From: Anaerolineales bacterium
GTDB lineage: Bacteria; Chloroflexota; Anaerolineae; Anaerolineales; E44-bin32
DNA length: 63,073 bases
Assembly (NCBI GenBank): GCA_030606845.1
Contig: JAUWFP010000001.1
Coordinates: forward strand, 1-63,073
Reading direction: 5' to 3'
Below, in pieces: positions 36,532-58,364 of this stretch. The notes beneath the pieces were generated by a model. The model ran no database searches and was not told the DNA's origin. It was given only the letters and a program-made list of their open reading frames with translations. The position numbers were made by a program, and so were the translations under genes. Position 1 is the first letter of the stretch; each line of letters starts with the position of its first letter.

Positions 36532-36735
36532 ATGGCGGAAGAGCATCACATGGTCATGACTGTTGAGGAGGTAGCTGAGTATTTACGTATCCCTCGATCA
36601 TCGGTCTATAAACTGGCTCAGGAGGGTAGAATACCATGTCAGAAGGCGGGAAGGCGTTGGAGATTTCATCGTCAGGCGATCGATCGGTGGCTAGGAAATG
36701 GAGAAGTACAAAACTTCCCTAGGCAGAATGAGTGA
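36532..36735 (+). CDS. Excisionase-family (HTH_17/MerR-like) DNA-binding protein (67 aa)
   Basis: MTVEEVAEYLRIPRSSVYKLAQEGRIPCQKAGRRWRFHRQAIDRWL matches the excisionase-type HTH consensus. GAGGTGAAGC lies before the ATG. Confidence 0.85.
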   Translation: MAEEHHMVMTVEEVAEYLRIPRSSVYKLAQEGRIPCQKAGRRWRFHRQAIDRWLGNGEVQNFPRQNE

Positions 36736-36796
36736 ATTAATAGATTTCTCTTTTGCTCAATTGATAGACATTGGAAATGATAAAGATTGGTCCATT

Positions 36797-37948
36797 ATGA
36801 TCCATTTTCTTCACCTCGCGGATTTGCACCTTGGTGCGAAAACCTCGTATCTCGGCAGCAGAGCTACTGAGCGAGGCCGAGATTTCTTGGAGGCGTTCAA
36901 GCGAGCTGTTGACTTTGCCATCAGGGAGGAGATCGACTTTCTCGTTATTGCAGGCGACTTCTTCGATACTCCAAACCCCTCTGATGAAACCCTACGATTC
37001 GCCATAGCTGAGCTGAAGAAGCTGTATCAAGCAAACATTCCGGTGATTCTCACTCCTGGCAATCACGACGCAATCGGCATGCCCGGATCCGTCTATACAG
37101 ATCCCAATTCAGAGATACGAAGGCTGGTAAATTTTGTCGATACCCCGAACCCCCGTCATGTTGCCACAGAAATCATCCATGGTGAATTGGTGCACTTCTA
37201 TAGCATGGCCTGGGACTTTCAGCGTTCTAAGCCTCCTTTCGATGATTTCCATGCCCTTGATGAGCCCGGATATCACATAGCTGTGCTCCACGGCACCTTG
37301 GAAGAAGGTCGTTTTACCGATGTCCATTCGAGGGAGGTTCCTCTCAAGCTATCCAATCTAAGTGAGACATGTATGGATTACATCGCTCTGGGACATATTC
37401 ATGCGCCGCAGGAGCATGCAGCTGGTCCAATACCGGTGGTTTATCCGGGTACGCTAGAAGGTAAGCGATTCACGCCTGGGGAAGAGGGCACACGGAGTCT
37501 AGTCGTAGTTACTCTAGATGGAAAAGCTCGCCCTCAGATTGAGCGCATTCCCTGGAATCAACGCATCTTACTGAGTGCGGAAATCAACTTGAGTGAGGAG
37601 GCGGTTGAATCGGACGATGATGTGGTAGCAATAATTTGTGATAGCTACGGGGATCCTAACAAATTGCTACGCATCAAATTTACTGGAACACCGCCATTTT
37701 TCCTGGATGTGGATAAGCTATATGAAAGACTCAGCGGAGACCTCTATTGGATCGATATTCGCGATGATACGGATGTCTTTGACAGCCGACTGATTGATGA
37801 ATGGGGTCAGGAAGAGACAATTCGAGGCCTACTAGTGCGGAAGCTGAGGGATCGAATGGTGAGTATCGAAGGTGAGGAAGCCAGGCAAAAGGTCGAACTC
37901 GCAATGAAGCTGGCGATCCAAGCGCTGCAGAAATCTGTGGAGAGGTGA
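36797..37948 (+). CDS. Mre11/SbcD/YhaO-like calcineurin-type metallophosphoesterase (start uncertain: 36698, 36728 or 36797)
   Basis: MIHFLHLADLHLG (motif I), IAGDFFD (II), TPGNHD (III), VLHG, LGHIH. Confidence 0.85.
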   Translation: MIHFLHLADLHLGAKTSYLGSRATERGRDFLEAFKRAVDFAIREEIDFLVIAGDFFDTPNPSDETLRFAIAELKKLYQANIPVILTPGNHDAIGMPGSVYTDPNSEIRRLVNFVDTPNPRHVATEIIHGELVHFYSMAWDFQRSKPPFDDFHALDEPGYHIAVLHGTLEEGRFTDVHSREVPLKLSNLSETCMDYIALGHIHAPQEHAAGPIPVVYPGTLEGKRFTPGEEGTRSLVVVTLDGKARPQIERIPWNQRILLSAEINLSEEAVESDDDVVAIICDSYGDPNKLLRIKFTGTPPFFLDVDKLYERLSGDLYWIDIRDDTDVFDSRLIDEWGQEETIRGLLVRKLRDRMVSIEGEEARQKVELAMKLAIQALQKSVER

Positions 37949-37951
37949 TCG

Positions 37952-40441: not shown

Positions 40442-40587
40442 CATGAGAGGCGTTCAGCTTTCGATTTATAGGAGATTGGTTCTTCGTTTTCGGCTTTTGA
40501 AAGAATAGGGATGGGAAAGTAATGTACATCCTGATTAGATGTATAAGTGCATCATTAATGCAACACGATCTGAACATCCAGAGATAA

Positions 40588-40686
40588 ATCCCCTGCAGGA
40601 AGGCGGGGAGGCGCTGGAGGTTTCATCGCGAGGCAATCGATAGATGGCTGGGGAATAATCCTCAATCTCGTGAGCTCCCAAAATAG
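40588..40686 (+). pseudogene. Truncated 3' remnant of a second excisionase-family HTH gene
   Basis: It translates to IPCRKAGRRWRFHREAIDRWLGNN..., compared with RIPCQKAGRRWRFHRQAIDRWLGNG in 36532-36735. An in-frame TAA lies immediately upstream and no N-terminal HTH is recoverable in frame. Confidence 0.7.
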
Positions 40687-40730
40687 CCATGTAATTTGTC
40701 CCGTGCTTGAATTTACTGAAGGGTTGCTAA

Positions 40731-43700
40731 ATGGATGTCTTTGCACTTCGTAATAAGCTCATTGATGACTACGCCTCATATGTCACCAGCTTTATAGAAA
40801 TTAAAGACGAACACATCCTTGAAGTTGTCCGTCGAGAAATCGCCGATGGCTTGATGTGGCCAGACCCGCTCATTCAACTTAACCCAGCCTTCGAGCCAGG
40901 AGCTTCAATTGATGAACTTGCCTCGGAAGGATTACTTCACGAAGAGTGCAGCAAGATTTTCAGACTCAAAGATGATCCTAAGAACCATGGTAAATCGTTA
41001 CGCCTTCATAAGCATCAGGATGAAGCAATAAGGATTGGCCTTGAGGGCTACAACTTTGTTCTGACCACTGGCACTGGATCTGGAAAAAGCCTGGCTTATA
41101 TCATTCCAATTGTGAATCATGTATTACAACGGGGCAGCGGAAAAGGGACGCAAGCGATTATCGTTTACCCGATGAATGCGCTTGCAAACAGCCAGATCGG
41201 TGAGCTGGAGAAGTTTATTAACTATGGATATCCGGACGAAAAGGGGCCGATAACTTTTGAGCGGTATACAGGACAGGAGAACTTCGAAGAGAAAAACCGC
41301 ATAATGTCTGACCCTCCGGACATTCTCCTCACCAACTATGTCATGTTGGAACTCATCCTCACCCGACCTCAAGAGAGGAGGACGTTAGTAAACGCGGCGA
41401 AAGGACTCCGTTTCCTGGTACTCGATGAGCTTCATACCTATCGAGGGAGGCAAGGGGCAGACGTAGCAATGCTTGTGCGGCGTGTTCGTGATGCCCTCTT
41501 GTCGGAAGACATGCAGTGTATAGGTACTTCAGCAACGTTGGCTGGTTCTGGAACCTACGAAGAGCAACGAAGAGAGGTCGCGGCTGTTGCTTCACAAATC
41601 TTTGGAGAACACGTTAAACCCGAGCATATCATTGGGGAAACCCTAAGGCGTGCTACCCCCGAAAGGGATTTAAACGATCCGGTATTTGTAGACCAGCTTC
41701 GAGAGCGCATCCAAGGCATTGATCAGATGGCGCCCACTGACTATGAAACCTTTGTCCGTGATCCACTCTCTATATGGATTGAAAGCATGTTTGGGATTCG
41801 TAAGGAGCCAGGAAATGGTCGACTCATACGGGCGGTGCCGCGAAGCATATCAGGTGATAATGGCGCAGCGGGGGAAATGAGCCGGCTCATAGATCTTGAG
41901 GAGTCAAAGTGCGGGAAGGCTTTAGAGGAAGGTCTATTGGCTGCCTATCGCTTCCATACCAATTCTGATTTAGGCTTCCCGCCATTTGCTTTTCGTCTTC
42001 ACCAATTCATTAGGCGTGGCGATACGGTGTACGCATCGCTTGAAGGAGAGGAAAAGCGCCACATTACAGTTTATGGTCAACAATTCGTTCCCGGAGATCG
42101 GAAACGGATTCTCCTACCATTAGTCTTTTGCCGAGAATGTGGTCAGGAGTACTATTCTGTGCGCTTGGGAGTTGGTGAAGATGAAAGGAGAGTGCTCTTC
42201 CCGCGTGATCTTTCCGACCGTCAGAAAGATGACACAGGAGAGGCTGGTTTTGTTTTCTTCAGCACTTCCGATCCGTGGCCAGACGACTCTGAGGCTGTTC
42301 TCGAGCGGTTGCCTGATGATTGGGTCGAGGAACATAGGGGAGCGTTGCGAGTTCGTAGAAACCGGAAGAAGGATTTACCACGCAAGGTAAGATTTGCCAC
42401 CAGTGGATGGGAATCCGATGAGGGCATCGATACCTGCTTTATCGGAGCACCGTTCCGTTTCTGCTTAAGCTGCGGTGTTGCTTATGATTTTCGTCAGCGG
42501 TCCGATTTCATGAAGCTCACGGCATTAGGGACCGGAGGGCGTAGTACCGCGACGACCATATTGAGTCTAGCCGCAATCCGAAGCTTACGTAAAGACGAGT
42601 CCCTACCCGAAGAGGCGAGAAAGCTTCTCAGCTTCACCGACAACCGACAGGACGCGGCGTTGCAGTCTGGGCACTTTAATGACTTTGTCGAAGTGGCGAT
42701 CCTTCGTGCAGGTCTCTACCATTCAGCCGTAGCTGCAGGCAAAGATGGCATAAGCCACGACGAGTTAACCCAAAAAGTCTTCGACGCCTTGCAGTTACCA
42801 CTTGAGATCTACGCTGTAGATCCAGTAGTACGATTTCAGGCTAAGGCTGAAACGGAACAAGCTTTTCGGGATGTACTTGGGTATCGTTTATACCGGGACC
42901 TGAGGCGAGGTTGGCGTATCATCTCTCCTAATCTTGAGCAATGTGGATTGCTTGAGATCCATTACAAGTCCCTTGAGGATGTCTGCCAGGCTGAAGATGT
43001 TTGGGAAGGTAAACATCCTGCTTTAGTCTCCGCTAGCGTAGATATCCGTATCAAGGTCGCAAAAACTTTATTGGACTTCATGCGAAGAGAGTTGGCGATT
43101 AAGGTTGATTATCTGGATCGGACCTATCAAGAACGGATTCAACAGCGCAGCAGCCAGCGTTTGATCGCACCCTGGGCTATCGATGAGAACGAGAAGTTGG
43201 AATTCGCTGCCGAACTCTATCCAAGACCGAGAGGGCAGTGGGATTCCCGTGAGAATGTTTTTCTTTCAGCTCGTGGTGGATTTGGGCAATACCTTCGAAG
43301 ATCGCCAACCTTTCCAGAGTATGGCGATAAATTAAAACTCGAAGATACTCGATTGATCATTGAGGATTTGCTTGAAGGACTCAAGGTCGCCGGTCTTGTT
43401 GAGGTTGTCAGAGAACCTAAGAATAAGGACGACGTTCCGGGATATCAGCTTCCGGCATCAGCTTTAACGTGGAGGGCAGGGGATGGCATAAGAGCTTTCC
43501 ATGATCCTATAAGGATACCCGCTCAGCCCGAAGAAGGTGGTCAGACGAACCGTTTCTTCGTGGAGTTCTATAAAAATGTCGCTGGTAGCCTGCAAGGTAT
43601 TGAAGCCAGAGAGCACACTGCGCAAGTTGATTATGATGACCGTCAAGATCGCGAAGAAAGATTTCGTGATGCAAGACTTCCAATTCTTTTCTGTTCACCA

Positions 43701-45905
43701 ACCATGGAGCTTGGCGTCGATATCTCAGAGCTCAATGTGGTCAACATGCGGAACATTCCGCCGACTCCATCCAACTATGCGCAACGAAGTGGTCGCGCAG
43801 GACGTAGCGGTCAACCGGCGCTCGTCTATTCCTATTGTGCGGTCGGCAATTCGCATGATCAGTACTTCTTCAAACGACCAAACCTCATGGTGGCCGGAGC
43901 GGTTACGCCGCCCCGCCTGGATCTTGCCAATGAAGACCTGGTTCGCGCGCACATTCAAGCGATCTGGCTCGCGGAAACGAATGTCTCTCTTGGTTCTTCG
44001 CTAAAAGACGTCCTTGACCTTGAAAGCGAAGATCCTTCCCTTGAACTCCTGGATTTCGTGAGAGGTAGCATCGAAAGCGATAGGCCGCGGCAGCGTGCCA
44101 AAGAAAGAGCGAAAAAGCTTCTGGGATCGATCGAGAATGAGCTACAAGCGTCCGATTGGCACAGCGATCACTGGCTGGATGAGGTCTTTGATCAGATCAT
44201 TCTCAGATTTGACCAGGCTTGTGATCGGTGGCGAGGGTTGTACCGTTCAGCACTTCAGCAGAGCAACCTTCAAACCCGGGTTGTTCAGGATGCGTCGCGG
44301 AGCCAGAGAGATAAGAATCAAGCCAAGCGCCTCCGTCGAGAAGCCGAGAGCCAGCTTGATCTCCTAACGGATGCGAAGAGCGTGGTTCAATCCGATTTCT
44401 ACAGTTACCGTTATTTCGCCAGTGAGGGGTTTCTCCCAGGATATAGCTTTCCGAGGCTGCCATTATCCGCCTATATTCCAGGTCGCCGTCGCAAGAAGTC
44501 GGATGGCGAATATATCAACCGACCTCGTTTCCTGGCGATCTCGGAGTTCGGCCCGCGGTCAATTGTCTACCACGAAGGCTCTCGCTACATTATCAATAAA
44601 GTGATTCTGCCTGTAGAGGCCGAGGAGGAGCAACCCGCCACAGGGATGGCAAAGCAATGTCCGCTTTGCAGCTACTTGCATCCAATCGCTGAGGGGGATG
44701 GTCCAGATCTTTGTGAACACTGCCGGGCGCCTCTGGATCAACCAATGCGGAATCTGTTCCGTTTGCAAAACGTCTCCACAAAGCGTCGCGATCGGATTAG
44801 TTCCGACGAAGAGGAGCGTCTGCGGCAAGGGTATGAAATCTGTACAGGTATCCGTTTCAGCGAGCAGGATGGTCGGCCCAAATTTAGATCAGCGGCGGTT
44901 GAACGAGATGGCGAAGTGTTGTTGAGGTTCAAGTATGGCAGTGCGGCAACGTTGTGGCGTATCAACCTTGGATGGAGGCGTCGAGCGAATCCGAATCTAT
45001 TCGGTTTCGTGCTTGATCTTGAACGAGGTTATTGGGCGCGGAGTGAACAACAAGCCGAAGAAGATCCTGAGGATCCGATGAGCGTTCGCACAAAGCGCGT
45101 GATCCCCTACGTCGAAGACCGACGCAATTGCTTAATCCTTGAACCGACCGAGACCTTGGATGGAGCTGTCATGGCATCCCTCCAGGCGGCGTTGAAAAAC
45201 GCGATCCAGGTTGAGTATCAGCTCGAAGATAATGAGCTGGCAGCGGAACCACTCCCCAGCCGCGACAAGCGCAAAATGATCCTGTTTTACGAAGCAGCAG
45301 AGGGTGGCGCTGGCGTTCTGAGACGACTCGTGGATGACAATGATGCGTTTTCAAAGGTTGCCAAACAGGCATTGTCGCTTTGTCACTTCGATCCTGAGAC
45401 CGGTGAAGATCTTCGCCGGGCGCCACGGTCGCGAGAAGACTGCGAGGCGGCCTGCTACGACTGCATGATGAGCTACACCAATCAAATGGATCACCAGCTC
45501 CTAGACCGGCAAGAAATCAAAGATATCCTTTTGAAGTTTGCTGGATCAAAGGTGAAGAGCGCTCCGGCTCCGACTTCGAGGGCCGAGCATCTGGCTCGAC
45601 TGATGAATCTTGCCGGATCGGAGCTCGAGAAAAACTGGCTTCAATTTCTCGAGGAGCATAATTACCGTTTGCCATCACATGCCCAGAGGTTCGTTGATAA
45701 ATGCAAAACCAGACCTGACTTCTTCTATAAGGACTATCTCACTGCGATTTATATTGACGGTCCCCATCACGACTATCCTGACCGAGCGGAACGAGATAAG
45801 GAAAGACAAGAGTGCATGGAAGACTTGGGATTTACCGTGATCCGCTTCAGCCATACAGATGACTGGGAGCCCATTGTGGGAAGATATCCGAATATTTTTG
45901 GATAG
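40731..45905 (+). CDS. Giant DEAD/DEAH-box helicase fused to DUF1998 (MrfA-type Zn module) and a C-terminal DUF559/Vsr-like endonuclease fold (1724 aa); DrmA/DrmB- or DruE-like
   Basis: Motif I TGTGSGKS, II LDELH, III TSAT, VI QRSGRAGRSGQ, with about 700 aa inserted between the RecA lobes. The DUF1998-like part is FLPGYSFPRLPL...CPLCSY...CEHC. The C-terminus is RPDFFYKDYLTAIYIDGPHHDYPDRAERDKERQECMEDLGFTVIRF. Confidence 0.9.
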   Translation: MDVFALRNKLIDDYASYVTSFIEIKDEHILEVVRREIADGLMWPDPLIQLNPAFEPGASIDELASEGLLHEECSKIFRLKDDPKNHGKSLRLHKHQDEAIRIGLEGYNFVLTTGTGSGKSLAYIIPIVNHVLQRGSGKGTQAIIVYPMNALANSQIGELEKFINYGYPDEKGPITFERYTGQENFEEKNRIMSDPPDILLTNYVMLELILTRPQERRTLVNAAKGLRFLVLDELHTYRGRQGADVAMLVRRVRDALLSEDMQCIGTSATLAGSGTYEEQRREVAAVASQIFGEHVKPEHIIGETLRRATPERDLNDPVFVDQLRERIQGIDQMAPTDYETFVRDPLSIWIESMFGIRKEPGNGRLIRAVPRSISGDNGAAGEMSRLIDLEESKCGKALEEGLLAAYRFHTNSDLGFPPFAFRLHQFIRRGDTVYASLEGEEKRHITVYGQQFVPGDRKRILLPLVFCRECGQEYYSVRLGVGEDERRVLFPRDLSDRQKDDTGEAGFVFFSTSDPWPDDSEAVLERLPDDWVEEHRGALRVRRNRKKDLPRKVRFATSGWESDEGIDTCFIGAPFRFCLSCGVAYDFRQRSDFMKLTALGTGGRSTATTILSLAAIRSLRKDESLPEEARKLLSFTDNRQDAALQSGHFNDFVEVAILRAGLYHSAVAAGKDGISHDELTQKVFDALQLPLEIYAVDPVVRFQAKAETEQAFRDVLGYRLYRDLRRGWRIISPNLEQCGLLEIHYKSLEDVCQAEDVWEGKHPALVSASVDIRIKVAKTLLDFMRRELAIKVDYLDRTYQERIQQRSSQRLIAPWAIDENEKLEFAAELYPRPRGQWDSRENVFLSARGGFGQYLRRSPTFPEYGDKLKLEDTRLIIEDLLEGLKVAGLVEVVREPKNKDDVPGYQLPASALTWRAGDGIRAFHDPIRIPAQPEEGGQTNRFFVEFYKNVAGSLQGIEAREHTAQVDYDDRQDREERFRDARLPILFCSPTMELGVDISELNVVNMRNIPPTPSNYAQRSGRAGRSGQPALVYSYCAVGNSHDQYFFKRPNLMVAGAVTPPRLDLANEDLVRAHIQAIWLAETNVSLGSSLKDVLDLESEDPSLELLDFVRGSIESDRPRQRAKERAKKLLGSIENELQASDWHSDHWLDEVFDQIILRFDQACDRWRGLYRSALQQSNLQTRVVQDASRSQRDKNQAKRLRREAESQLDLLTDAKSVVQSDFYSYRYFASEGFLPGYSFPRLPLSAYIPGRRRKKSDGEYINRPRFLAISEFGPRSIVYHEGSRYIINKVILPVEAEEEQPATGMAKQCPLCSYLHPIAEGDGPDLCEHCRAPLDQPMRNLFRLQNVSTKRRDRISSDEEERLRQGYEICTGIRFSEQDGRPKFRSAAVERDGEVLLRFKYGSAATLWRINLGWRRRANPNLFGFVLDLERGYWARSEQQAEEDPEDPMSVRTKRVIPYVEDRRNCLILEPTETLDGAVMASLQAALKNAIQVEYQLEDNELAAEPLPSRDKRKMILFYEAAEGGAGVLRRLVDDNDAFSKVAKQALSLCHFDPETGEDLRRAPRSREDCEAACYDCMMSYTNQMDHQLLDRQEIKDILLKFAGSKVKSAPAPTSRAEHLARLMNLAGSELEKNWLQFLEEHNYRLPSHAQRFVDKCKTRPDFFYKDYLTAIYIDGPHHDYPDRAERDKERQECMEDLGFTVIRFSHTDDWEPIVGRYPNIFG

Positions 45906-45929
45906 TGAGTGAAGAAAGGAAGGATTAGA

Positions 45930-46904
45930 ATGAGTAAGATGGTGAGCAAAGATCATGAGGAAGGAAAGCCACGCTGGTCCTATCCACGTCACAAAGAGTT
46001 CAGGAAAGAGTTAGAGGCCGCCGCTTCAAGCTGGTTTTCTGATAATAAGAAACCAATAGGAAATAAAGCCCCTTATATCCTTGCCTCTCACAAAGACTGG
46101 CCAGAAAACATAATCCTGCCTTGTGTTGCAGAGTATGTGCTTTCTGAGCAAGACTCACGGTCGGAAAGAGGTGAGGGGTTTCCGCTCCATAGGTGGATCC
46201 ATCACGGTCTCAGCAGCCAGGCCATGCTATTCAATCTTGTGGGTCCACTCATTATCTCTAATGATCTTGAGCCACTGCGTGAAACTCTCAAAGCCTTTTA
46301 TATTCCTTGGCCTAAAGGGAATACAGTGGGCCGGTTCGAAATTGAGGATCGGGAGGTATTCCATGAGTGGCAAGGTCAACCAACATCGATTGATCTCGCA
46401 ATTGAGGACGGCCCTGACAGCCACACAATCTTTGTAGAAGCAAAGTTAGTCGAGCAAGAATTTGGAGGGTGCTCTGTCTTTTCTAACGGTGATTGTGATG
46501 GTCAGAACCCGGCCTCTGACCATTCACTTTGTTATCTACACCACATTGGCCGTTCTTATTGGGAGCGACTTGATGAATTCGGCTTCCTGTTTGGGCCGAT
46601 GAAAGACAGCCCGGTCTGTCTATTGTCGCAGTACTATCAATTCTTTCGGGAGATCCTGTTTACATTTGTCAAGTACGGCTATTTCATTCTGCTGGTTGAT
46701 AGGCGTAACCCCACTTTCTCAAGAGAGGGAGACCATGGAACCCGTGGACTCTTCCCCTTTTTGATCAGTTTTGTGCCTGAAGAGCACAGGAATCGAATAT
46801 GGCTTGTCACTGTGCAAGACCTTTTGAAGTCGATCCAGGATTCAGGGAGACACAACGATTGGGTTAGTGAGTTCAGGAGCAAATATGGGATTTATGTGGT
46901 CTAA
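45930..46904 (+). CDS. Hypothetical PD-(D/E)XK-like nuclease (324 aa from the ATG at 45930)
   Basis: HHGLSSQAMLFNLVGPL and IDLAIED...IFVEAKLVEQE (D...ExK). GAAAGGAAGG RBS. Confidence 0.7.
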   Translation: MSKMVSKDHEEGKPRWSYPRHKEFRKELEAAASSWFSDNKKPIGNKAPYILASHKDWPENIILPCVAEYVLSEQDSRSERGEGFPLHRWIHHGLSSQAMLFNLVGPLIISNDLEPLRETLKAFYIPWPKGNTVGRFEIEDREVFHEWQGQPTSIDLAIEDGPDSHTIFVEAKLVEQEFGGCSVFSNGDCDGQNPASDHSLCYLHHIGRSYWERLDEFGFLFGPMKDSPVCLLSQYYQFFREILFTFVKYGYFILLVDRRNPTFSREGDHGTRGLFPFLISFVPEEHRNRIWLVTVQDLLKSIQDSGRHNDWVSEFRSKYGIYVV

Positions 46905-46973
46905 ATGCATTCAAGGGTTGATGAGAACAAGTCCGGCCTGCTTATCGTTTCAGATGTTTGAAGGATTAGGCGA

Positions 46974-49805
46974 ATGACTTTTTCTGTGGGTTCTCTTGTC
47001 AAAGCCAGAGGCAGGGAATGGGTTGTCTTACCCGAGTCAGAAAAGGATTTCCTCGTGCTGCGCCCGCTAGGTGGGACGGAGGACGAGATCGCCGGCATCC
47101 ACACCGACCTGGAGGCTGTCGAAACCGCTCATTTCGATCTACCGGATCCGTCGCTCGTAGGAGACTACCGCTCCGCGCGCCTGCTACGTGATGCGGTCCG
47201 TCTTGGATTTCGCTCCAGCGCCGGTCCCTTTCGTTCATTCGGGAGGCTCGGATGCGAGCCCCGGCCCTACCAATTGGTGCCGTTGCTTGTGGCTTTAAAG
47301 CTGGATCCGATTCGCATCCTGATTGCGGACGATGTCGGTATCGGAAAAACGATCGAAGCTTGTCTCATTGCTCGAGAATTGCTCGATCGAGGTGAAGTTG
47401 CCCGCTTGGCTGTGCTCTGCCCTCCGGCTCTAGCGGAACAGTGGCAGTCGGAGCTCAGGGAGAAGTTCCATATCGAGGCGGAACTTGTGCTTTCCAGCAC
47501 GGCTGCTCGCCTAGAGAGAGGGCTGAGTCTCGGACAATCCCTCTTTGATGTCTATCCATTTGTTGTAGTTTCTACTGATTACATTAAATCTGACGTTCGG
47601 CGTGACGAATTCCTGCGGACTTGCCCTGAATTGGTGATCGTCGATGAAGCGCATACATGTGCCTTTGGACACAAAGGTCGGGGGGGTCGGCAGCAGCGCC
47701 ACGAACTGGTCTCCGGTCTTGCGACAGATGAGGATCGCCACCTTATCCTCGTCACAGCCACACCTCACAGCGGGAAGGAAGAAGCGTTCCGTTCTCTGTT
47801 GACATTCCTAACCCCAGATTTTGCTGATCTCCCTGATGAACTGAGCGGCCCGGATAACGTACAACACCGTCGGCATCTAGCGCAGCACTTCGTTCAGCGT
47901 AGAAGGGCTGACATTCGCCATTACCTTGATGCGGATACGAAATTCCCAAAACGACAGGACGCAGAGGATACCTACAATCTCTCTGATGAGTACAAGCACC
48001 TCTTCAACCGGGTTCTTCACTACGCCCGGGAGACGGTCCTGGATCCGAGCGGTGAGCATTACCGCCAACGGGTACGCTGGTGGTCGGCATTGGCTCTGCT
48101 TCGTTCGCTTGCTTCCAGCCCAGCTGCGGCAGCGGCGACCCTGCGTACACGAGCTTCCACAACAGACGCGGAGACCACAAAGGACGTGGACGAAATCGGT
48201 CGAAGAGCTGTACTGGATTTGTTGGAGGACGAGGCGGCGGAGGGAACGGACGTTGTACCAGGAGGGGACATCGGCGAACTGGCGATGGACGAGAATGCAA
48301 ATCGGCGTCGCCTGCTCGATATGGCTCGTGAGGCGGAATCTCTTATTGGTGATCAGGATACGAAGCTCATTAAAGCAATAGACATTGTCAAGAAGTTTCT
48401 CAAGGATGGATACCATCCCATCGTGTTCTGTCGTTTCATTCCTACTGCGGAATATGTGGCGGAAGAATTTCGCAAACGGCTTCCCGGGGGTATTGAAGTT
48501 GCTGCTATTACGGGCACTTTGCCACCCTCTGAACGAATGGCACGCGTGGAGCAATTGGGAAATGCAAAGAAGCGGATACTTGTCTGCACGGATTGTCTGA
48601 GTGAGGGTATCAATCTTCAGGACTATTTTGATGCCGTCATGCATTACGATCTCTCCTGGAACCCGACCCGCCATGAGCAGCGTGAGGGACGTGTGGACCG
48701 CTTCGGGCAACCAAAAGATCTCGTACGAGTTATGACTTACTACGGTGTGGATAACCAAATCGATGGCATTGTGCTGGATGTATTACTCCGCAAGCATCGC
48801 ACAATTCGGAATTCCCTAGGGATCTCCGTACCGGTTCCGGTCGACGCAGAGCAGGTAATTGAGGCGATCTTCGAAGGGCTTCTTCTGCGCGAGACCGCGG
48901 ATGCCACAGCAAAATACCTCCCAGGTTTTGAAGAGTACATCAAACCGAAGAAGGACGAACTATATCGTGAGTGGGAGGCGGCGGAAGCACGCGAGAAACG
49001 CTCTAGAACCATGTTCGCCCAAGAGACGATTATGCCCGAAGAGGTAGCAAATGAGCTGCACGCGGCCCAGGATGCCATCGGTCTTGGCGTGGATGTCAGT
49101 CGATTTTTCAATGACGCCCTCCGTGCACATAAGGGGGTCGTCCAATCGAAGAATGGTGCCTGGAGTTATCAAATCCAGGAAGTGCCGCAGGCGTTGCGAG
49201 AAATGATGGGAGCGGAAGAGGCGTTCGATGCAAAGTTTCAACTTCCTGTCCAAACAGGACAGATCCACCTCATGCGTACGCACCCGATGGTTGAAGGTCT
49301 TGCGAGCTACTTGATGGACACAGCTCTGGATCCTCTCCTAGAGAGTGCTGCGAGACGATGTGGTGTCATACGAACGAACATCGTAAATCGGAGGACGACT
49401 TTGCTGCTTGTGCGATTCCGGTATCACATCCGCACCGACGGTGGAAGTGACGATCATGCGCTTCTAGCTGAAGACATCCAAGCTTACGCTTTTGCGGGAA
49501 GCCCTGAAAAAGCGGAATGGTTAGGTACGACAGACGCCGAAGAGCTGATGATGTCCGAGCCGGAGGCCAATATCGCTCGCGAGCAAGCAAGTGGATTTAT
49601 ACACAAGGTCATTGATGGATACGCAGAGTTGGCTCCACAATTGGAGGCTTTCGCTCAGGAGCGGGGGGCCTTGCTCCTGGATGCGCACATGCGTGTACGG
49701 CAGGCAGCTCGGATGAGGGGACGGCGACCTCGAGTGGAGCCACACTTGCCCCCGGATGTCTTAGGGATTTACGTTTTCCTTCCTGCAGCCAAGTCATCTG
49801 ATTAG
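46974..49805 (+). CDS. SNF2-family helicase (943 aa), DrmD-like
   Basis: DDVGIGKTIEA (I), VIVDEAHTC (II), VTATPHSGK (III), SEGINLQ (V), QREGRVDRFGQ (VI). Confidence 0.9.
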   Translation: MTFSVGSLVKARGREWVVLPESEKDFLVLRPLGGTEDEIAGIHTDLEAVETAHFDLPDPSLVGDYRSARLLRDAVRLGFRSSAGPFRSFGRLGCEPRPYQLVPLLVALKLDPIRILIADDVGIGKTIEACLIARELLDRGEVARLAVLCPPALAEQWQSELREKFHIEAELVLSSTAARLERGLSLGQSLFDVYPFVVVSTDYIKSDVRRDEFLRTCPELVIVDEAHTCAFGHKGRGGRQQRHELVSGLATDEDRHLILVTATPHSGKEEAFRSLLTFLTPDFADLPDELSGPDNVQHRRHLAQHFVQRRRADIRHYLDADTKFPKRQDAEDTYNLSDEYKHLFNRVLHYARETVLDPSGEHYRQRVRWWSALALLRSLASSPAAAAATLRTRASTTDAETTKDVDEIGRRAVLDLLEDEAAEGTDVVPGGDIGELAMDENANRRRLLDMAREAESLIGDQDTKLIKAIDIVKKFLKDGYHPIVFCRFIPTAEYVAEEFRKRLPGGIEVAAITGTLPPSERMARVEQLGNAKKRILVCTDCLSEGINLQDYFDAVMHYDLSWNPTRHEQREGRVDRFGQPKDLVRVMTYYGVDNQIDGIVLDVLLRKHRTIRNSLGISVPVPVDAEQVIEAIFEGLLLRETADATAKYLPGFEEYIKPKKDELYREWEAAEAREKRSRTMFAQETIMPEEVANELHAAQDAIGLGVDVSRFFNDALRAHKGVVQSKNGAWSYQIQEVPQALREMMGAEEAFDAKFQLPVQTGQIHLMRTHPMVEGLASYLMDTALDPLLESAARRCGVIRTNIVNRRTTLLLVRFRYHIRTDGGSDDHALLAEDIQAYAFAGSPEKAEWLGTTDAEELMMSEPEANIAREQASGFIHKVIDGYAELAPQLEAFAQERGALLLDAHMRVRQAARMRGRRPRVEPHLPPDVLGIYVFLPAAKSSD

Positions 49806-49816
49806 AGGTTGGTGCA

Positions 49817-52800
49817 ATGCAAACGCGTAAACGAGCTGAATTCACAACGATACGAACAGAAGGGGCGATCCTGCCCCCAGATCTCCTGGAACGGGTACGG
49901 GAAGGGGAGAGCGACCTTGAAGGGATGCGCCCTGATGATTACCGCCTTGAAGCAAACGAGAAGCTGAACGAACGAATCAGCCGATCGTGGAGCCGACTAG
50001 TAGGAGCCTGGGCATCGTTTCAGTCGCATATTACAGATATCCCAGATAATGAACCAGGGACGACGGAGACACGCGAGCGTTGGCTGCTTCCACTCTTCCG
50101 TGAGCTGGACTTCGGTCGGCTGAGGACGGCGAAGGCTTATAAGCTAAATGGGAAGAGTTATCCCATCTCGCATGGATATGAGAAGGTGCCCATTCATCTC
50201 GTTGGAGCACGGGTAGCGCTGGACAGACGAAGGGCTGGGGTGGCAGGTGCAGCTCGCGCCAGCCCGCACAGCCTGGTGCAGGAACTACTCAACCGCTCGG
50301 ATGACCACCTGTGGGCATTTCTATCGAACGGTTTACGGCTCCGTATCCTGCGGGACAATGCTAGCCTAACGCGTCAGGCGTATGTAGAGTTCGATCTGGA
50401 GGCGATGATGGAGGGTGAGGTCTATGCTGACTTCGCTCTTTTGTGGCTCTTGTGTCATCAGTCGCGGGTGGAGGGGGAGATCCCAGAGGAGTTCTGGCTG
50501 GAGCGCTGGTCACTAATGGCGCAAGAGCAGGGGACTCGAGCACTGGAGCAATTGCGCGAAGGCGTGGAGGAGGCGATCCGCATCTTTGGCGAAGGATTCC
50601 TTGCACATCCTGGGAACTATACTCTTAAGGAACGACTGAGGGAAGGGGATCTAGATCCGCAGGAATATTATCGTCAGCTGTTGCGGATGGTCTACCGTCT
50701 GATCTTCCTATTTGTGGCAGAGGATCGCGGGTTGCTATTTAACCCCGCTTCAAAAACGGCAGCACGAGAACGCTATCGAGAACACTATTCGACAGCCAGA
50801 TTGCGACGCCTGGCAGAACGGCGGCGGGGGACGCGACATCCAGACCTCTATCGGGGTCTTTGGGTGGTGATGGAGAAACTCGGTTCAGATGCTGGTTGTC
50901 CGGAGTTGGGGTTGCCAGGATTGGGTGGGTTTCTTTGGTCTGAACAAGCTGTCGCAGATCTGGCGGAGTGCCAACTGGCTAATCATGATCTCTTGTATGT
51001 TGTTCGCAGCCTGGCGTTCACAGAAGAGGGACGGGTACGGCGAGCGGTGGACTACAAGAACCTGGGTCCGGAGGAGCTGGGCAGTGTGTACGAATCACTA
51101 CTGGAGCTGCAGCCCGAGATGAACGTGGATGCACCAACCTTTGATTTGAAGGTGGTGGGCGGCAGCGAACGCAAGACGACGGGTAGCTATTACACACCTA
51201 CGAGCTTAATCCAGTGCTTATTAGACAGCGCCCTAGATCCCGTGATCGAGGAAGCCTTGAAAGAAGACGATCCAGAAGAAGCCTTACTGAACCTAAAGAT
51301 CTGCGATCCGGCAACGGGAAGTGGACATTTCCTGGTGTCGGCGGCGCATCGCGTGGCGCGGAGCCTGGCTGCGGTGCGCACCGGGGATGCGGAGCCCTCG
51401 CCGGAAGCGCAGCGGACGGCGCTGAGGGAGGTGATAGGGCGCTGCCTCTACGGAGTAGACATCAACCCGGATGCGGTGGAGCTGTGCAAGGTGAACCTGT
51501 GGCTAGAGGCCATCGACCCTGGCAAGCCGCTGACGTTCCTCGATGATCAGATTCTATGCGGGAATAGCTTGTTGGGCACGACGCCGGCGCTGATGGAGAA
51601 GGGCATCCCGGATGAGGCCTTCAAGCCGATTGAGGGCGATGACAAGAAATTCGCTTCTTCACTGAAGAAGCAGAACAAGCGAGAACGACCCAAGGAAGAT
51701 CTTCTTGAGCAAGGCATTGAAAGCGCGCAATCAAGTATGTTCGCCGAATTTGAGCGCGAAGAGCGTTTTAACTATGCTCTGCTGCAGAAAGTGGCGATCG
51801 GCATTGCAGAGACGGATGACAGCAGTGTGAGCGTTGTGAGGGAGAAGGGGGAGAAGTATCGAGCGTTGCTTGAATCCGAAGCCTACCAACATTCCAAGCT
51901 AATTGCGGATGCTTGGTGTTCTGCGTTTGTGTGGCACAAGACGACCGATGCACCGGAACCGATCACGGAGGCGAGCTATCGCAAGCTGGCGAGTAATCCC
52001 AAATCAATATCGGTAAGGACAAAGAATGAGATCGAACGCCTCTCAGAACAATATCAGTTCTTCCACTGGCATCTGGCATTTGCGGGGGTCGTCTGGCTGG
52101 CGGCGGGTGGGTATGCGCCGGAGCCGGAGGTGACCGGTTGGAGCGGGGGTTTCAGTGTTGTCTTGGGAAATCCGCCCTGGGAGCGAATAAAACTACAGGA
52201 GAAGGAGTGGTTTGCAGGACGAGATGATGAGATTGTTAAAGCACGAAATAAAAATGAGCGGATGCGTTTAATCAGAAATCTTCAGGAGGAAGACCCATCT
52301 CTATATTCGGCGTTTCTTTCTGCAAAAAGAGTAGCAGAGGGTCAGAGTCATCTTATTCGAGTTTCAGGTAAATATCCTCTGTGTGGGAGAGGGGATTTCA
52401 ATACTTATGCCATTTTTTCTGAATGTTTCCGGTTAATCCTAGCGGCTATTGGAAGGGCTGGCATCATTGTTCCTTCTGGGATCGCAACTGAACAGACAAC
52501 AAAACTGTTCTTTATAGATCTGATGAAATCGTTCAAATTAATAAGCCTCTTTGATTTTCAAAATACGATGTCCCTCTTTCCCGCAGTAGATCGGAACCAG
52601 AAATTCAGTTTGTTAACGATGAGTGGGATAGAACTGAATTTCATCCAACCGAGATTTAGTTTTGCAATAGAGGACCCAATTGAATTGTCGAGAAAAGGGA
52701 GAGGCTACTCCCTCACAAATGAGGATATGCTTCTACTTAATCCAAATACAGGCACTTGCCCAACATTTCGGACGGAACGGGACGCAAAGATTATTTTGGA

Positions 52801-53923
52801 TATTTATTCACGAACACCTATCCTAATCCGAGAAGTACAAAAAATCGATAACCTTTGGGGTATCGATTTCTTTACAATGTTCCATATGTCTGGTGCGTCT
52901 AATCTATTTCGAGGAAGAGAGTATATGGAACGGGAGGGAATGGCTTCTGATGGGAATTTGTATGTGAAAGGTAATGAGGTCTATTTACCACTTTATGAAG
53001 GAAAGATGATATGGCAATACGACCATAGATACTCACAAGTTGTGCATAGCTCGGCAGGGCAAAGATTGCGAGGCAGTTCTGAGAGGGCTAGCGAAACTGA
53101 CCATCTTAATCCTGGCTTCTATCCTTTACCGAGGTACTGGGTATCTGAGAAACATACTAATCCTGAAGTTCAAGAAAGGGGTTGGGTGTTGGGATTCCGT
53201 CGTGTCGCAGGCTCTGTCTCAAATATCCGAACGGCAGTTTTTGTGATACTACCTAGCGCCGCCGTAAGTGACAGTATATTCCTTATAAATTGTGATAATG
53301 CAGAAATTGCTTGCTTATTGTTAGGGAATTTCAACTGTTTCGCCTTAGATTACATACTGAGGAACAAGATTTCCGGAATTAATCTCAGTTTCTATTTTAT
53401 TAAACAATTGCCGATTATTCCACCCGTGAATTACTCTGCGGAAATGAGAAATTTCGTTCTGTCTCGAGTTTTAGAACTTTCATATACCGCATGGGATTTG
53501 TATCGCTTTGGTATGGATTTAGGCTACGACGGACCTCCTTTTCGGTGGGACGAGTATCGCCGGTTCCTCCTTCACTGCGAGCTGGACGCGGCCTTCTTTC
53601 ATCTCTACCTGCCGGCCACGCCCGATCGCCGATGGCGACCTGCCCGCATCGCCGAGGGCGCCATGCGCGACGAGTCCGACGAGGAACTGGCCGAGCTTGA
53701 GAAACACTTCCCCATGCCGCGCCACGCGGTGGACTACATCCTGGACACCTTCCCCATCGTCCGTCGCAGGGATGAGGCTGAGTACGGCGAGTACCGCACC
53801 AAGCGCGTCATCCTGGAGATCTACGACGACATGCAGCGGGCCATCGCCACCGGCGAGCCCTACCAAACCCGTCTCGATCCCCCACCAGCGGATCCGAGGG
53901 TGGCGCATCCGGCGAGAGAGTAA
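49817..53923 (+). CDS. Large N6-adenine DNA methyltransferase, Eco57I/type IIG-L-like (1368 aa), DrmMI/PglX-like
   Basis: GSYYTP, motif I DPATGSGHFL, motif IV GNPPW, and a conserved C-terminal tail FPIVRRRDEAEYGEYRTKRVILEIYD. Confidence 0.9.
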   Translation: MQTRKRAEFTTIRTEGAILPPDLLERVREGESDLEGMRPDDYRLEANEKLNERISRSWSRLVGAWASFQSHITDIPDNEPGTTETRERWLLPLFRELDFGRLRTAKAYKLNGKSYPISHGYEKVPIHLVGARVALDRRRAGVAGAARASPHSLVQELLNRSDDHLWAFLSNGLRLRILRDNASLTRQAYVEFDLEAMMEGEVYADFALLWLLCHQSRVEGEIPEEFWLERWSLMAQEQGTRALEQLREGVEEAIRIFGEGFLAHPGNYTLKERLREGDLDPQEYYRQLLRMVYRLIFLFVAEDRGLLFNPASKTAARERYREHYSTARLRRLAERRRGTRHPDLYRGLWVVMEKLGSDAGCPELGLPGLGGFLWSEQAVADLAECQLANHDLLYVVRSLAFTEEGRVRRAVDYKNLGPEELGSVYESLLELQPEMNVDAPTFDLKVVGGSERKTTGSYYTPTSLIQCLLDSALDPVIEEALKEDDPEEALLNLKICDPATGSGHFLVSAAHRVARSLAAVRTGDAEPSPEAQRTALREVIGRCLYGVDINPDAVELCKVNLWLEAIDPGKPLTFLDDQILCGNSLLGTTPALMEKGIPDEAFKPIEGDDKKFASSLKKQNKRERPKEDLLEQGIESAQSSMFAEFEREERFNYALLQKVAIGIAETDDSSVSVVREKGEKYRALLESEAYQHSKLIADAWCSAFVWHKTTDAPEPITEASYRKLASNPKSISVRTKNEIERLSEQYQFFHWHLAFAGVVWLAAGGYAPEPEVTGWSGGFSVVLGNPPWERIKLQEKEWFAGRDDEIVKARNKNERMRLIRNLQEEDPSLYSAFLSAKRVAEGQSHLIRVSGKYPLCGRGDFNTYAIFSECFRLILAAIGRAGIIVPSGIATEQTTKLFFIDLMKSFKLISLFDFQNTMSLFPAVDRNQKFSLLTMSGIELNFIQPRFSFAIEDPIELSRKGRGYSLTNEDMLLLNPNTGTCPTFRTERDAKIILDIYSRTPILIREVQKIDNLWGIDFFTMFHMSGASNLFRGREYMEREGMASDGNLYVKGNEVYLPLYEGKMIWQYDHRYSQVVHSSAGQRLRGSSERASETDHLNPGFYPLPRYWVSEKHTNPEVQERGWVLGFRRVAGSVSNIRTAVFVILPSAAVSDSIFLINCDNAEIACLLLGNFNCFALDYILRNKISGINLSFYFIKQLPIIPPVNYSAEMRNFVLSRVLELSYTAWDLYRFGMDLGYDGPPFRWDEYRRFLLHCELDAAFFHLYLPATPDRRWRPARIAEGAMRDESDEELAELEKHFPMPRHAVDYILDTFPIVRRRDEAEYGEYRTKRVILEIYDDMQRAIATGEPYQTRLDPPPADPRVAHPARE

Positions 53924-53945: not shown

Positions 53946-54662
53946 ATGGAAATTCCATATCTCAGGATCTATCAGCAAGAACGGATTACCCATATCCGGA
54001 ACTGGTATCAGATGTGGAGTGATCTACATCTAGATAAAGAACTCGATTCGAGCGTCCGCTACCTTCTTGCTTGGACGGTATTCAACGCGCTCTACAATGT
54101 CGCCGATATGCCCAATAGAAAACCTAAAAAACCCAGTCAAAGTACTGGGCAGCCGCGGGTTAGTTGGACTCGCGAACGCAGCAAATTGAAGAAAATTGCT
54201 CATCGGTTAGCTGCGAACGGTGATTTCATCCAAGATCTATATAGAAGGAATCGCGATTTCTGTGATCAGCTTGCAAGTCGAACTCCCCAAGTTTCTCAGC
54301 CGGATCCTGTAGACGAGATCCCGTATGAGGTCGATGGGGAGGTATTTATATTTCATTCCAACGAGATCCGAGGTGTAGCGAGTCTTGACAACCGTGTCAT
54401 TCTCGATGGTGGGTATAAGCTATTCGAATATGAAACCTTAGTGATCGAAAAGAGAAAAGATGGAACCCTTATAGATCCCAAAATCTTTATCCGACACATG
54501 GTATTCGTCCTCTACCAGATTAGAAACAATGTTGCACATGGCGGATCGGCTGCCTTCTTTTTACGAGGGAATAAAGTGTCAGAGGGAGCCATAACGGTTC
54601 TTGATCATATTGTTCGGCATCTCCTTAAGAATCAAGACATTCTGTTGAGTAACGAGGAATGA
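53946..54662 (+). CDS. HEPN-domain protein (238 aa from the ATG at 53946)
   Basis: The C-terminal LYQIRNNVAHGG fits the HEPN Rx4-6H (RNxxxH) motif. The track ORF start at 53697 would overlap the methyltransferase by 227 nt, so I rejected it. Confidence 0.7.
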   Translation: MEIPYLRIYQQERITHIRNWYQMWSDLHLDKELDSSVRYLLAWTVFNALYNVADMPNRKPKKPSQSTGQPRVSWTRERSKLKKIAHRLAANGDFIQDLYRRNRDFCDQLASRTPQVSQPDPVDEIPYEVDGEVFIFHSNEIRGVASLDNRVILDGGYKLFEYETLVIEKRKDGTLIDPKIFIRHMVFVLYQIRNNVAHGGSAAFFLRGNKVSEGAITVLDHIVRHLLKNQDILLSNEE

Positions 54663-54731
54663 AGAAGTCAAACGATAAGCTTGAAGGGCAATTATCCTCT
54701 ATATAGCTTTCTAAAGAATGTAGGCGGCTTG

Positions 54732-54959
54732 ATGGCGACCTACCAACAAATCCAGGATTATGTGCGAAGAAACAACGGCTTCACACCGAAAACGTGTTGG
54801 ATCGCACACGTCAAAGACGAATTGGGATTACCAATGAGGAAGGCGTCCAATCGCCTTGGAGCTGAACGCAAGTATCCTTGCCCTGAAGATAAGAAGTCTG
54901 AGATTGAGGCTGCGTTACGTCATTTCGGGATGATCGACTTTGACCGACTACTGGGCTGA
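54732..54959 (+). CDS. Small conserved-looking hypothetical protein (75 aa; alternative TTG start at 54681)
   Basis: MATYQQIQDYVRRNNGFTPKTCWIAHVKDELGLPMRKASNR...ALRHFGMI. It lies 12 nt upstream of the next gene. I cannot name a family. Confidence 0.55.
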   Translation: MATYQQIQDYVRRNNGFTPKTCWIAHVKDELGLPMRKASNRLGAERKYPCPEDKKSEIEAALRHFGMIDFDRLLG

Positions 54960-58309: not shown

Positions 58310-58364
58310 ATAATTCGCACAGTTTTGTGGACTATAGATCTATATGCATAGAGAGGAAAGCCCC

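Follow-up and report, generated by a model that had tools for sequence, protein, structure and literature searches.

A probable ARMADA Type I operon with a nested REase-ARP nuclease gene in an Anaerolineales bacterium

A total of 63,073 nucleotides (nt) from contig JAUWFP010000001.1 of the Anaerolineales bacterium assembly GCA_030606845.1 (positions 1 to 63,073 of the forward strand, hereafter the window) were used for the analysis. The subject of this study is a locus at positions 40731-53923 in which four consecutive genes encode a giant YprA-family helicase, a nuclease of the Pfam family REase-ARP, an SNF2 helicase and a large N6-adenine DNA methyltransferase. A first-pass annotation of this DNA had described the locus as a variant of class 1 DISARM or a hybrid between known classes, and the open reading frame (ORF) map agrees with it on the coordinates and sizes of the four genes, all of which lie on the plus strand. 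The longest ORF of the second gene starts at a GTG and encodes 331 amino acids (aa); the 324 aa given earlier fit the ATG at 45930, which stands behind a ribosome-binding site (AAGGAAGG). Gaps inside the operon are all 69 nt or less, with 24 nt between the helicase stop and the REase-ARP gene, 69 nt between the REase-ARP gene and the SNF2 start, and a methyltransferase start 11 nt past the SNF2 stop. The sole sizeable gap preceding the operon is the 289-bp intergenic region 5' of the helicase gene, where a promoter is presumed to lie; a scan for consensus promoters and terminators gave counts at or below shuffle expectation, with no signal above background. The lengths and catalytic motifs of all genes agree with those of their homologues, with no sign of degradation, and the genes are taken as real conserved genes and not chance ORFs because at least 8000 homologues were found for the helicase and 1072 for the REase-ARP protein. 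The four-gene locus is intact and co-directional. Near-identical DNA was sought in annotated collections; E. coli genomes yielded nothing, and plasmids no more than a trivial match.

The YprA family of helicases was surveyed by Bell et al. 2025 (bioRxiv 10.1101/2025.09.15.676423; PMC12458937), who analyzed about 52,000 members. That study describes ARMADA, short for disARM-related Antiviral Defense Array, a system that has its SNF2 helicase and PglX-like methyltransferase in common with DISARM, has a Druantia-like helicase, and is dubbed the 'missing link' between the two. In ARMADA helicases, according to that study, the stretch inserted between the RecA lobes comprises a BrxA-like domain, a beta-barrel rich in CxxC motifs and a MarR-like domain, and the C-terminus is a Vsr-type nuclease predicted to be active (PMC12458937, Table S2).

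Analysis of the window helicase revealed the Walker A motif GSGKS at residue 116 and a DELH motif at residue 232. The Pfam domain boundaries place 671 aa between the RecA lobes, close to the approximately 700 aa estimated earlier. Two CxxC pairs in this insertion (C467/C470 and C578/C581) and two in the OB region are invariant, residue invariance in the helicase being judged across 23 homologues, and these pairs agree with the zinc modules reported by Bell et al. (PMC12458937). Homologues number at least 8000; the best 120 are all about 1721-1848 aa long and 62-69% identical to the window protein, and come from many phyla. Comparison with the PADLOC models gave 343 bits for DruE3 and 310 bits for DruE1, against 57 bits for DrmA; the DruE matches are partial and cover part of those longer profiles. 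A DrmB model was not among the PADLOC matches listed (25 of 30 matching families). Since the DruE scores far exceed that of DrmA, the helicase groups with the Druantia type and not the DISARM type, which bears out the earlier suggestion that the giant helicase-DUF1998 protein is DruE-like. The fusion of helicase and DUF1998 had been considered non-canonical. In the survey by Bell et al. (PMC12458937) the fusion is the normal state of the YprA family and the split genes of DISARM are the exception, and that part of the description was given up.

The last 115 residues of the helicase form a Vsr-type nuclease domain. Its AlphaFold2 model has a predicted local distance difference test score (pLDDT) of 94.5, and its best matches in Foldseek were 1CW0, the Vsr endonuclease of E. 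coli (probability 1.00), and 3R3P, the Vsr-like domain of I-Bth0305I (0.99). The domain carries the invariant motif R-P-D1663-F ... D1676-G-x-x-H1680 ... R1705-F. A sequence-only search of the PDB with the helicase C-terminus gave no meaningful match, a profile search with it matched 3HRL with an E-value of 0.024, and the Pfam family DUF559 matched the helicase weakly (22.5 bits, cut-off 20.6). The modeled domain is predicted to be an active nuclease and would be the built-in nuclease effector of the core system.

The SNF2 helicase contains the Walker A motif GIGKT at residue 122 and DEAH at residue 224. In PADLOC, the protein matched the model PDLC02853 'DpdE' over its full length with 885 bits, DrmD with 265 bits and BrxHI/II with 177-217 bits; in NCBIfam it matched DISARM_DrmD with 300 bits (cut-off 610), DpdE with 186 bits (cut-off 500) and RapA with 115 bits. 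As a side observation, the 2023 PADLOC sub-model PDLC02853 spans the ARMADA I SNF2 protein from end to end. This sub-model was probably built from ARMADA-type SNF2 proteins, and for that reason PADLOC 2023 may call ARMADA I loci partial Dpd systems. The methyltransferase contains the S-adenosylmethionine-binding motif DPATGSG at residue 497 and NPPW at residue 785, the latter as expected from its earlier description as a large NPPW methyltransferase. PADLOC gave 209 bits for DrmMI, 124 bits for type IIG enzymes and a weak match to PglX, and no DrmMI-type NCBIfam match was found for this protein. The DrmD and DrmMI matches are consistent with the earlier view that an SNF2 helicase and an N6-adenine methyltransferase are common to this locus and class 1 DISARM.

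The protein encoded by the second gene belongs to the Pfam family REase-ARP (PF22558), which it matched with 157 bits against a cut-off of 27 over profile positions 3-270 of 270. Its D...ExK motif, already recognized in the first-pass annotation, consists of D155, E170 and K172 in the 324-aa numbering (D162, E177 and K179 in the 331-aa numbering); the D, the ExK and an E are invariant in 57 REase-ARP sequences. Past the catalytic motif an invariant cysteine cluster was found (C181, C189 and C201, plus H204 or C230, in the 324-aa numbering), the pattern of which suggests a metal or iron-sulfur site. The 1072 homologues are about 317 aa long and roughly 50-57% identical across phyla, and one of them is named 'PGN_0703 family putative restriction endonuclease'. 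Many JGI records name 317-aa REase-ARP proteins 'POLQ-like helicase', an apparent mis-annotation. The protein had no PADLOC or NCBIfam match. Its AlphaFold2 model has a pLDDT of 93.7, and the fold search gave no significant PDB match (best E-value 0.07), the weak matches all being PD-(D/E)xK nucleases; without a significant match, no functional analogue can be named for it. A literature search on 'REase-ARP' found no papers.

Conservation of the gene neighborhood was analyzed using a scan of one genome per species. At least 596 genomes had a relative, and 80 of these loci were taken together with five found earlier, giving 85 ARMADA I loci. The SNF2 gene lies directly 3' of the helicase gene in all 63 evaluable loci, and the methyltransferase gene comes next after SNF2 in 53 of 54. 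Four long contigs show the same arrangement, with genes for an SNF2 protein (about 943 aa) and then an Eco57I-type methyltransferase (about 1340 aa) downstream of the helicase gene and on its strand. Three genes, and not four, thus make up the conserved unit. Cultured examples include the Deinococcus radiodurans R1 megaplasmid pMP1 and a Rhodococcus qingshengii plasmid, with generic annotations in both. The pMP1 locus (L170; NZ_CP038665.1, 157069-168565) is an ARMADA Type I locus flanked by insertion sequence elements, and its methyltransferase is annotated as two coding sequences (609 and 540 aa) and may be disrupted.

The order helicase, SNF2, methyltransferase was described as inverted in the first-pass annotation; it is the usual order of ARMADA Type I, which is given as YprA-like helicase, SNF2 helicase and PglX-like methyltransferase (PMC12458937). 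Membership in the Type I clade was judged by proxy, through the labels of five close homologues matched by accession. These homologues (P0165, P0167, P0194, P0221 and P0226) share 62-64% identity with the window helicase along its full length, and their accessions (MBW2072408.1, HXG08670.1, MCP4607530.1, MDA2923116.1 and MBW2032151.1) carry the label 'ARMADA Type I helicase' in Table S1 of PMC12458937, which holds at least 1999 helicase rows, all Type I among those listed. Further Type I features present in the window are the YprA-family DExH helicase with fused OB-CON-DUF1998 regions in a single 1724-aa protein and the C-terminal Vsr-type nuclease, predicted to be active from its model; a 671-aa insertion with two invariant CxxC pairs lies between the RecA lobes. 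Type II, by comparison, has a strict ArmA-ArmB-ArmC-ArmD order, in which ArmD is an added RelE-GajB helicase (PMC12458937). No ArmD was found 3' of the methyltransferase, where the ORFs encode a 238-aa protein, a 92-aa protein, a TATA-binding protein (TBP)-like/RNase HIII protein and a tetratricopeptide repeat (TPR)-cold-shock domain (CSD) protein. The only GajB-like helicase of the window lies 12 kb upstream, and its UvrD domain begins at residue 3, too near the N-terminus for a RelE-like domain to precede it. Sensitive blastn of the helicase core against E. coli genomes gave no match, and for this reason the decision between Type I and Type II was based on how the genes are ordered, on the lack of an ArmD and on the table of Bell et al.

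Gene content, gene order, intact motifs, the Vsr fold and family membership as observed in the locus indicate, with a probability of about 85%, that it is an anti-phage system of ARMADA Type I, intact and with a single additional nuclease gene nested in it. The three genes fit this described type by the accession table and by synteny, though not by hidden Markov model scores: the PADLOC comparison proposed earlier placed the helicase nearest to DruE and gave no clean label for any gene. The earlier placement of the locus between known classes was correct as far as it lies between DISARM and Druantia; the idea of an undescribed hybrid or variant was abandoned, as this architecture has already been published under the name ARMADA Type I (PMC12458937).

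Several points weigh against this reading. No NCBIfam model reached its cut-off, and PADLOC-DB 2023 predates ARMADA and holds no ARMADA models, so the putative Type I assignment is drawn from the labels of homologues, synteny and domain features. For the helicase insertion, which in ARMADA also has BrxA-like and MarR-like domains, the comparison covered the length and the CxxC pairs. Activity against phages is reported for Type II only in the literature searched, and function and mechanism are inferred for Type I. Finally, the REase-ARP protein may cooperate functionally with ARMADA, a possibility raised by its tight spacing, its linkage to the helicase across a recombination breakpoint and a distant family member at the other junction of another ARMADA locus, all of which are taken up below.

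The place of the nested gene was analyzed from two sides, the REase-ARP family as a whole and the ARMADA I loci. For the family, 80 metagenomic loci were collected, of which 56 had usable flanks; a contig scan with a single REase-ARP sequence gave nothing, and these loci came from later alignment-based scans. REase-ARP is solitary in 55 of the 56 evaluable loci. The exception (L090) has the gene between helicase and SNF2, as in the window, and two further metagenomic loci have an ARMADA-like methyltransferase several kb away on the opposite strand. In a Zixibacteria genome the gene stands alone amid housekeeping genes, and in another genome it lies amid toxin-antitoxin genes. No conserved partner gene of REase-ARP was found among its neighbors, the neighbor clusters being confined to five or fewer closely related contigs. 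In four unrelated loci (L004, L093, L145 and L164), the gene next to REase-ARP falls into one cluster with an ADP-ribosylglycohydrolase-like protein. A tblastn search of plasmids with REase-ARP found nothing.

From the side of the system, a profile search of all ORFs of the 85 ARMADA I loci found the REase-ARP family only in L001 and L088. L001 is the sister locus of the window. In L088 a distant member (L088:18118-19026; PF22558, 47 bits; 24% identity to the window protein) occurs at the SNF2/methyltransferase junction, and it is the only member of the family seen in the 80 species-representative loci. Embedded copies like that of the window were found in the window, L001 and L090 only, those of L001 and L090 being about 90% identical to the window copy. 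Bell et al. do not mention the gene for ARMADA I in the available text and supplements (PMC12458937). Judged from this distribution, REase-ARP is not part of the conserved ARMADA core and is a lineage-specific insertion at the helicase/SNF2 junction. An ATGA stop/start overlap is found at this junction in insert-free relatives and is lost in the window because the REase-ARP gene is nested there. The family is thus solitary and in varied contexts elsewhere, and embedded in an ARMADA operon in the window and two near-identical relatives, which answers to the possibility raised in the first-pass annotation that the locus combines genes of separately distributed systems.

The other proposal made for this gene, that a D...ExK protein sits in place of the PLD (phospholipase D) protein of DISARM, was not upheld. 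Domain scans of the four genes and eight flanking ORFs (12 ORFs, 36.7-62.5 kb) found no PLD domain, as had been stated earlier. The conserved core contains no such gene, REase-ARP is distributed independently, and the helicase already bears a PD-(D/E)xK-superfamily nuclease of its own, which removes the need for a separate gene in the role of the PLD protein. Most probably REase-ARP is either a solitary nuclease independent of the system or an optional accessory to it, and not a stand-in for the PLD protein of DISARM.

The locus was also compared with the sister locus L001. The ratio of nonsynonymous to synonymous substitution rates (dN/dS) between the two is 0.24 for REase-ARP and 0.21 for the helicase. 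Because REase-ARP is under purifying selection and its motifs are intact, the gene is most likely functional and co-transcribed. Synonymous divergence (dS) is 0.12 for the helicase and 0.20 for REase-ARP, as against 2.8 for SNF2 and 1.0 for the methyltransferase. A sliding comparison located a sharp breakpoint at about 47,500, inside the SNF2 gene: identity is 91-100% over the helicase, REase-ARP and the first approximately 500 nt of SNF2, and falls to 58-75% over the rest of SNF2 and about 80% over the methyltransferase. L001 also has a DUF3800 gene at the SNF2/methyltransferase junction, which the window lacks. The contrast in dS together with the breakpoint means that REase-ARP travels with the helicase while the C-terminal part of SNF2 and the methyltransferase have been exchanged, and this hints that what is probably the specificity part of the system is swapped as a module. 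A 10-mer, GAAGGATTAG, occurs only twice in the 63-kb window, at 45919-45928 before the REase-ARP ATG and at 46960-46969 before the SNF2 ATG, and was considered as the direct repeat of an insertion scar. This was rejected, since L001 and L090 have the 10-mer only before SNF2 and lack the upstream copy, and both copies in the window are ribosome-binding regions; the pair is probably a likeness between ribosome-binding sites.

REase-ARP is not the only gene found at the operon junctions. Between helicase and SNF2, 45 of 63 loci have at most 100 bp, often with the stop/start overlap, and 15 have more than 250 bp; between SNF2 and methyltransferase, gaps of more than 250 bp were seen in 18 of 53 loci. 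The inserts are varied and include Fic, DUF3800, a Schlafen-type ATPase, an Hsp70/actin-like protein, two STAND NTPases, an AAA_21 ATPase, MazE, bAvd and a NucS-like PADLOC candidate (PDC-S11). The last of these, a PD-(D/E)xK protein, lies at the SNF2/methyltransferase junction (L082:8948-9937). A GajB-like UvrD helicase of about 690 aa occurs at the helicase/SNF2 junction in six of 63 loci (L011, L021, L037, L045, L063 and L064); no domain was assigned to the N-terminal approximately 230 aa of these six proteins, and they recall ArmD, described by Bell et al. in the available text for Type II only (PMC12458937). Judged from these arrangements, both operon junctions are permissive and REase-ARP is one among many nested genes.

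These data also allow a different weighting, in which the locus represents a four-gene ARMADA Type I subtype and REase-ARP works as an accessory; together with the helicase it could, for instance, be a second nuclease effector or process DNA ends. The four genes share one strand with spacings of only 24 nt and 69 nt around REase-ARP and with no terminator or promoter signal above background; its D...ExK motif is intact and its dN/dS is low; it and the helicase have kept together despite the breakpoint at about 47.5 kb; and it is kept in three independent sequences (window, L001 and L090). The distant REase-ARP of L088 and the NucS-like gene of L082, both at the other junction, suggest repeated recruitment of nucleases. 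Set against this are the presence of the family in only two of the 85 ARMADA I loci, its overwhelmingly solitary occurrence in unrelated contexts, the conserved Vsr nuclease that the core already has, and the close relationship of the three carriers, which form one lineage and hence reflect a single event. The same junctions house many unrelated genes, so that position alone is no proof of cooperation. We consider a four-gene subtype unlikely, though it is the most serious competitor of the reading preferred here. The same doubtful standing is given to a broader form of the idea, in which ARMADA Type I operons would be platforms that repeatedly capture additional nuclease or defense genes at their two junctions and REase-ARP would, in this lineage, have become a working fourth subunit travelling with the helicase. 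The linkage of REase-ARP and helicase past the breakpoint, the independent capture at the other junction in L088 and the GajB-like helicases in six of 63 loci fit such a platform.

The original proposal of a class 1 DISARM variant, with DrmA and DrmB fused, DrmC swapped for a PD-(D/E)xK protein and the order rearranged, draws on real homology. Class 1 DISARM (DrmD, DrmMI, DrmA, DrmB and DrmC) and the window both have SNF2 and N6-adenine methyltransferase homologues (DrmD with 265 bits in PADLOC and 300 bits in NCBIfam; DrmMI with 209 bits), a YprA-family helicase and the DUF1998 function, and the helicase matches DrmA weakly with 57 bits. However, the helicase scores about six times higher for DruE than for DrmA and is of the Druantia/ARMADA branch, no DrmB was among the PADLOC matches listed, and the DrmD match of 300 bits is below half of the curated cut-off of 610. 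Separate genes for DrmA and DrmB are the hallmark of the DISARM branch, whereas the window has a single fused ORF and another gene order. DISARM has the PLD protein DrmC, no gene for which was present among the 12 ORFs scanned, and the nuclease of the window is a Vsr domain fused to the helicase. The D...ExK gene is missing in almost all relatives, and the close homologues are labeled ARMADA Type I. A DISARM variant is therefore regarded as very improbable. Still less probable is a Druantia variant or a Dpd-type restriction module, readings suggested by the PADLOC matches to DruE3 (343 bits), DruE1 (310 bits), PDLC02853 'DpdE' (885 bits, full length) and DpdJ (77 bits) and, for Druantia, by a giant helicase with RecA-lobe insertion and zinc modules in common, as PADLOC 2023 predates ARMADA and its labels are the nearest available; the DruE matches cover part of longer profiles only; the window helicase is paired with SNF2 and a methyltransferase, with no DruA-D, DruM/F/G or DruH match among the neighbors scanned; its C-terminus is a conserved, predicted active Vsr type and not the PLD of Druantia III or the inactivated Vsr of types I and II; the NCBIfam scores of 186 bits for DpdE and 67 bits for DpdJ lie far below the respective cut-offs of 500 and 800; no DpdA/B/C, 7-deazaguanine, TGT-like or ParB-like Dpd genes were found in the ORFs scanned by the operon; and the high 'DpdE' score comes from the single sub-model PDLC02853.

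Returning to ARMADA Type I, the locus resembles other members in its three core genes and their order, in a helicase of about 1725 aa with large RecA insertion, CxxC zinc modules, fused DUF1998 and C-terminal Vsr-type nuclease, and in a mobile-element-like backbone. It differs in the REase-ARP gene between helicase and SNF2, in the lost ATGA overlap and in being mosaic relative to its sister locus, with the breakpoint inside SNF2. The experimentally validated relative is ARMADA Type II (armABCD; E. coli NCTC 12900, EDL933 and ATCC 8739), whose SNF2 ArmA, methyltransferase ArmB and helicase-Vsr ArmC all have homologues in the window. Additional EEP and Vsr domains that are inactive are frequent in Type II ArmC and absent from the window protein, and Type II requires ArmD at the end of its operon, whereas the window operon begins with the helicase and has no ArmD.

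The genetics of ARMADA Type II and the biochemistry of DISARM and Druantia supplied the analogies from which a mechanism was inferred. In Type II none of the four genes is dispensable, nor are the Walker motifs in ArmA and ArmC or the NPPW motif in ArmB, and defense is direct and non-abortive (PMC12458937); the Walker A/B and NPPW motifs needed there are present in the window. A second Type II study (mBio 2026) likewise found each gene essential and proposed that ArmC recognizes DNA structure and not sequence. DruE of Druantia III, the nearest characterized helicase, is reported to engage replication intermediates containing single-stranded DNA (ssDNA). By these analogies, the methyltransferase would mark host DNA and/or serve as the specificity subunit of the complex, and the SNF2 ATPase and the YprA helicase would engage phage DNA as it invades or replicates, loading at its ssDNA ends or forks. 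Translocation by the helicase would follow, and the Vsr-type domain would cut the phage DNA, with direct, non-abortive defense as the outcome. REase-ARP may act apart as a solitary nuclease or may supply a second cutting activity.

The features of the window are listed in Table 1. The left half of the window contains an integrase, ParA and ParB, a VirB11-type ATPase, a primase, RadC and a GajB-like helicase, from which a plasmid-like or integrative and conjugative element (ICE)-like backbone was deduced, and the window fits such an element bearing a defense island. The GC content is 0.60-0.63 at 14-23 kb of the window and 0.44-0.55 elsewhere; the window ends do not overlap. Directly upstream of the operon lies an SbcCD-like pair, which may be another defense module; its SbcC-like ATPase has weak PADLOC matches to LmuB, mad3 and GajA. 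The two small ORFs past the methyltransferase have no Pfam match. About 1 kb past ARMADA I, a pair of genes resembles a conflict system of the kind called TOTE, for TPR-OB-TBP-effector: the 681-aa protein has two TBP-like repeats of the RNase HIII N-terminal type and an RNase HIII catalytic domain (TIGR00716, 201 bits), and the 431-aa protein, with TPR and cold-shock domains, matched the PADLOC model 'TPR' (PDLC01170) with 107 bits and DUF7017. Rare TALON systems are described as having an ARMADA-like helicase together with TPR-CSD and TBP genes (Bell et al., PMC12458937); homologues of the TPR-CSD and TBP/RNase HIII proteins occur in none of the 85 other ARMADA I loci. The island ends with a type IV restriction pair, in which the McrB-like protein has a DUF2461 N-terminal region and an AAA_5 GTPase domain.

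Table 1. Features of the four-gene locus and of its surroundings in the 63,073-nt window.
Feature	Position	Strand	Size	Basis or remark
ArmC-like YprA-family DExH helicase-nuclease gene	40731..45905	+	1724 aa	ORF map; Pfam DEAD, Helicase_C, MZB; PADLOC DruE
RecA1	helicase residues 94-271			Pfam DEAD
Insertion between RecA lobes			671 aa	invariant CxxC pairs C467/C470, C578/C581
RecA2, C-terminal part	helicase residues 943-1027			Pfam Helicase_C
OB-region Zn module	C1310/C1313, C1328/C1331			invariant CxxC pairs
DUF1998/MZB (MrfA Zn-binding)	helicase residues 1484-1579			Pfam; C1571, C1575, C1578 invariant
Vsr-type (DUF559-like) PD-(D/E)xK-superfamily nuclease domain	45558..45902	+		helicase residues 1610-1724
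Second gene, longest ORF	45909-46904	+	331 aa	from GTG
REase-ARP gene, likely start ATG 45930	45930..46904	+	324 aa	AAGGAAGG ribosome-binding site just 5'
ArmA-like SNF2 (BrxHII/RapA/DrmD-like) helicase gene	46974..49805	+	943 aa	ORF map; Pfam SNF2-rel_dom, Helicase_C
ArmB-like PglX/DrmMI-like N6-adenine DNA methyltransferase gene	49817..53923	+	1368 aa	ORF map; Pfam Eco57I, N6_Mtase
Intergenic region 5' of helicase gene	40442..40730	.	289 bp	sole sizeable gap preceding operon
SbcD/Mre11-like phosphoesterase and SbcC/Rad50/LmuB-like SMC ATPase	36698-40441		416 aa and 829 aa	directly upstream of operon
Two ORFs between methyltransferase and TOTE-like genes	53950-54959		about 238 aa and 92 aa	first begins MEIPYLR; second at 54681-54959
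TBP/RNase HIII protein and TPR-cold-shock protein	54972-58309		681 aa and 431 aa	stop of first overlaps start of second
McrB-like protein and overlapping McrC	58344-62455		959 aa and 411 aa	type IV restriction pair, end of island
Tyrosine integrase	9927-11000			
VirB11/T2SSE ATPase	18123-19676			
ParB and ParA	22425-24558			
GajB-like UvrD helicase	26787-28499			
DnaG-like primase	28631-29713			
RadC	33660-34415			
HD+OB protein	34591-35613			

The main value of this analysis lies in the classification, as the link between DISARM and Druantia is already published and named and one ARMADA type is already predicted by DefenseFinder. Roughly a quarter to a third of the loci carry other defense-type genes at their junctions, which bears on how defense islands and composite systems are assembled. 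If the operons are indeed platforms for gene capture, the locus would represent a new four-gene ARMADA subtype and would provide the first functional context for the REase-ARP family. No experimental test of ARMADA Type I was found in the literature searched. The system is widespread (at least 596 species-representative genomes and at least about 2000 listed helicases), and the intact and compact locus of the window is a candidate for such a test. REase-ARP itself is a large and highly conserved nuclease family with a cysteine cluster and no close structural relative, and the locus offers a setting in which it may be studied.

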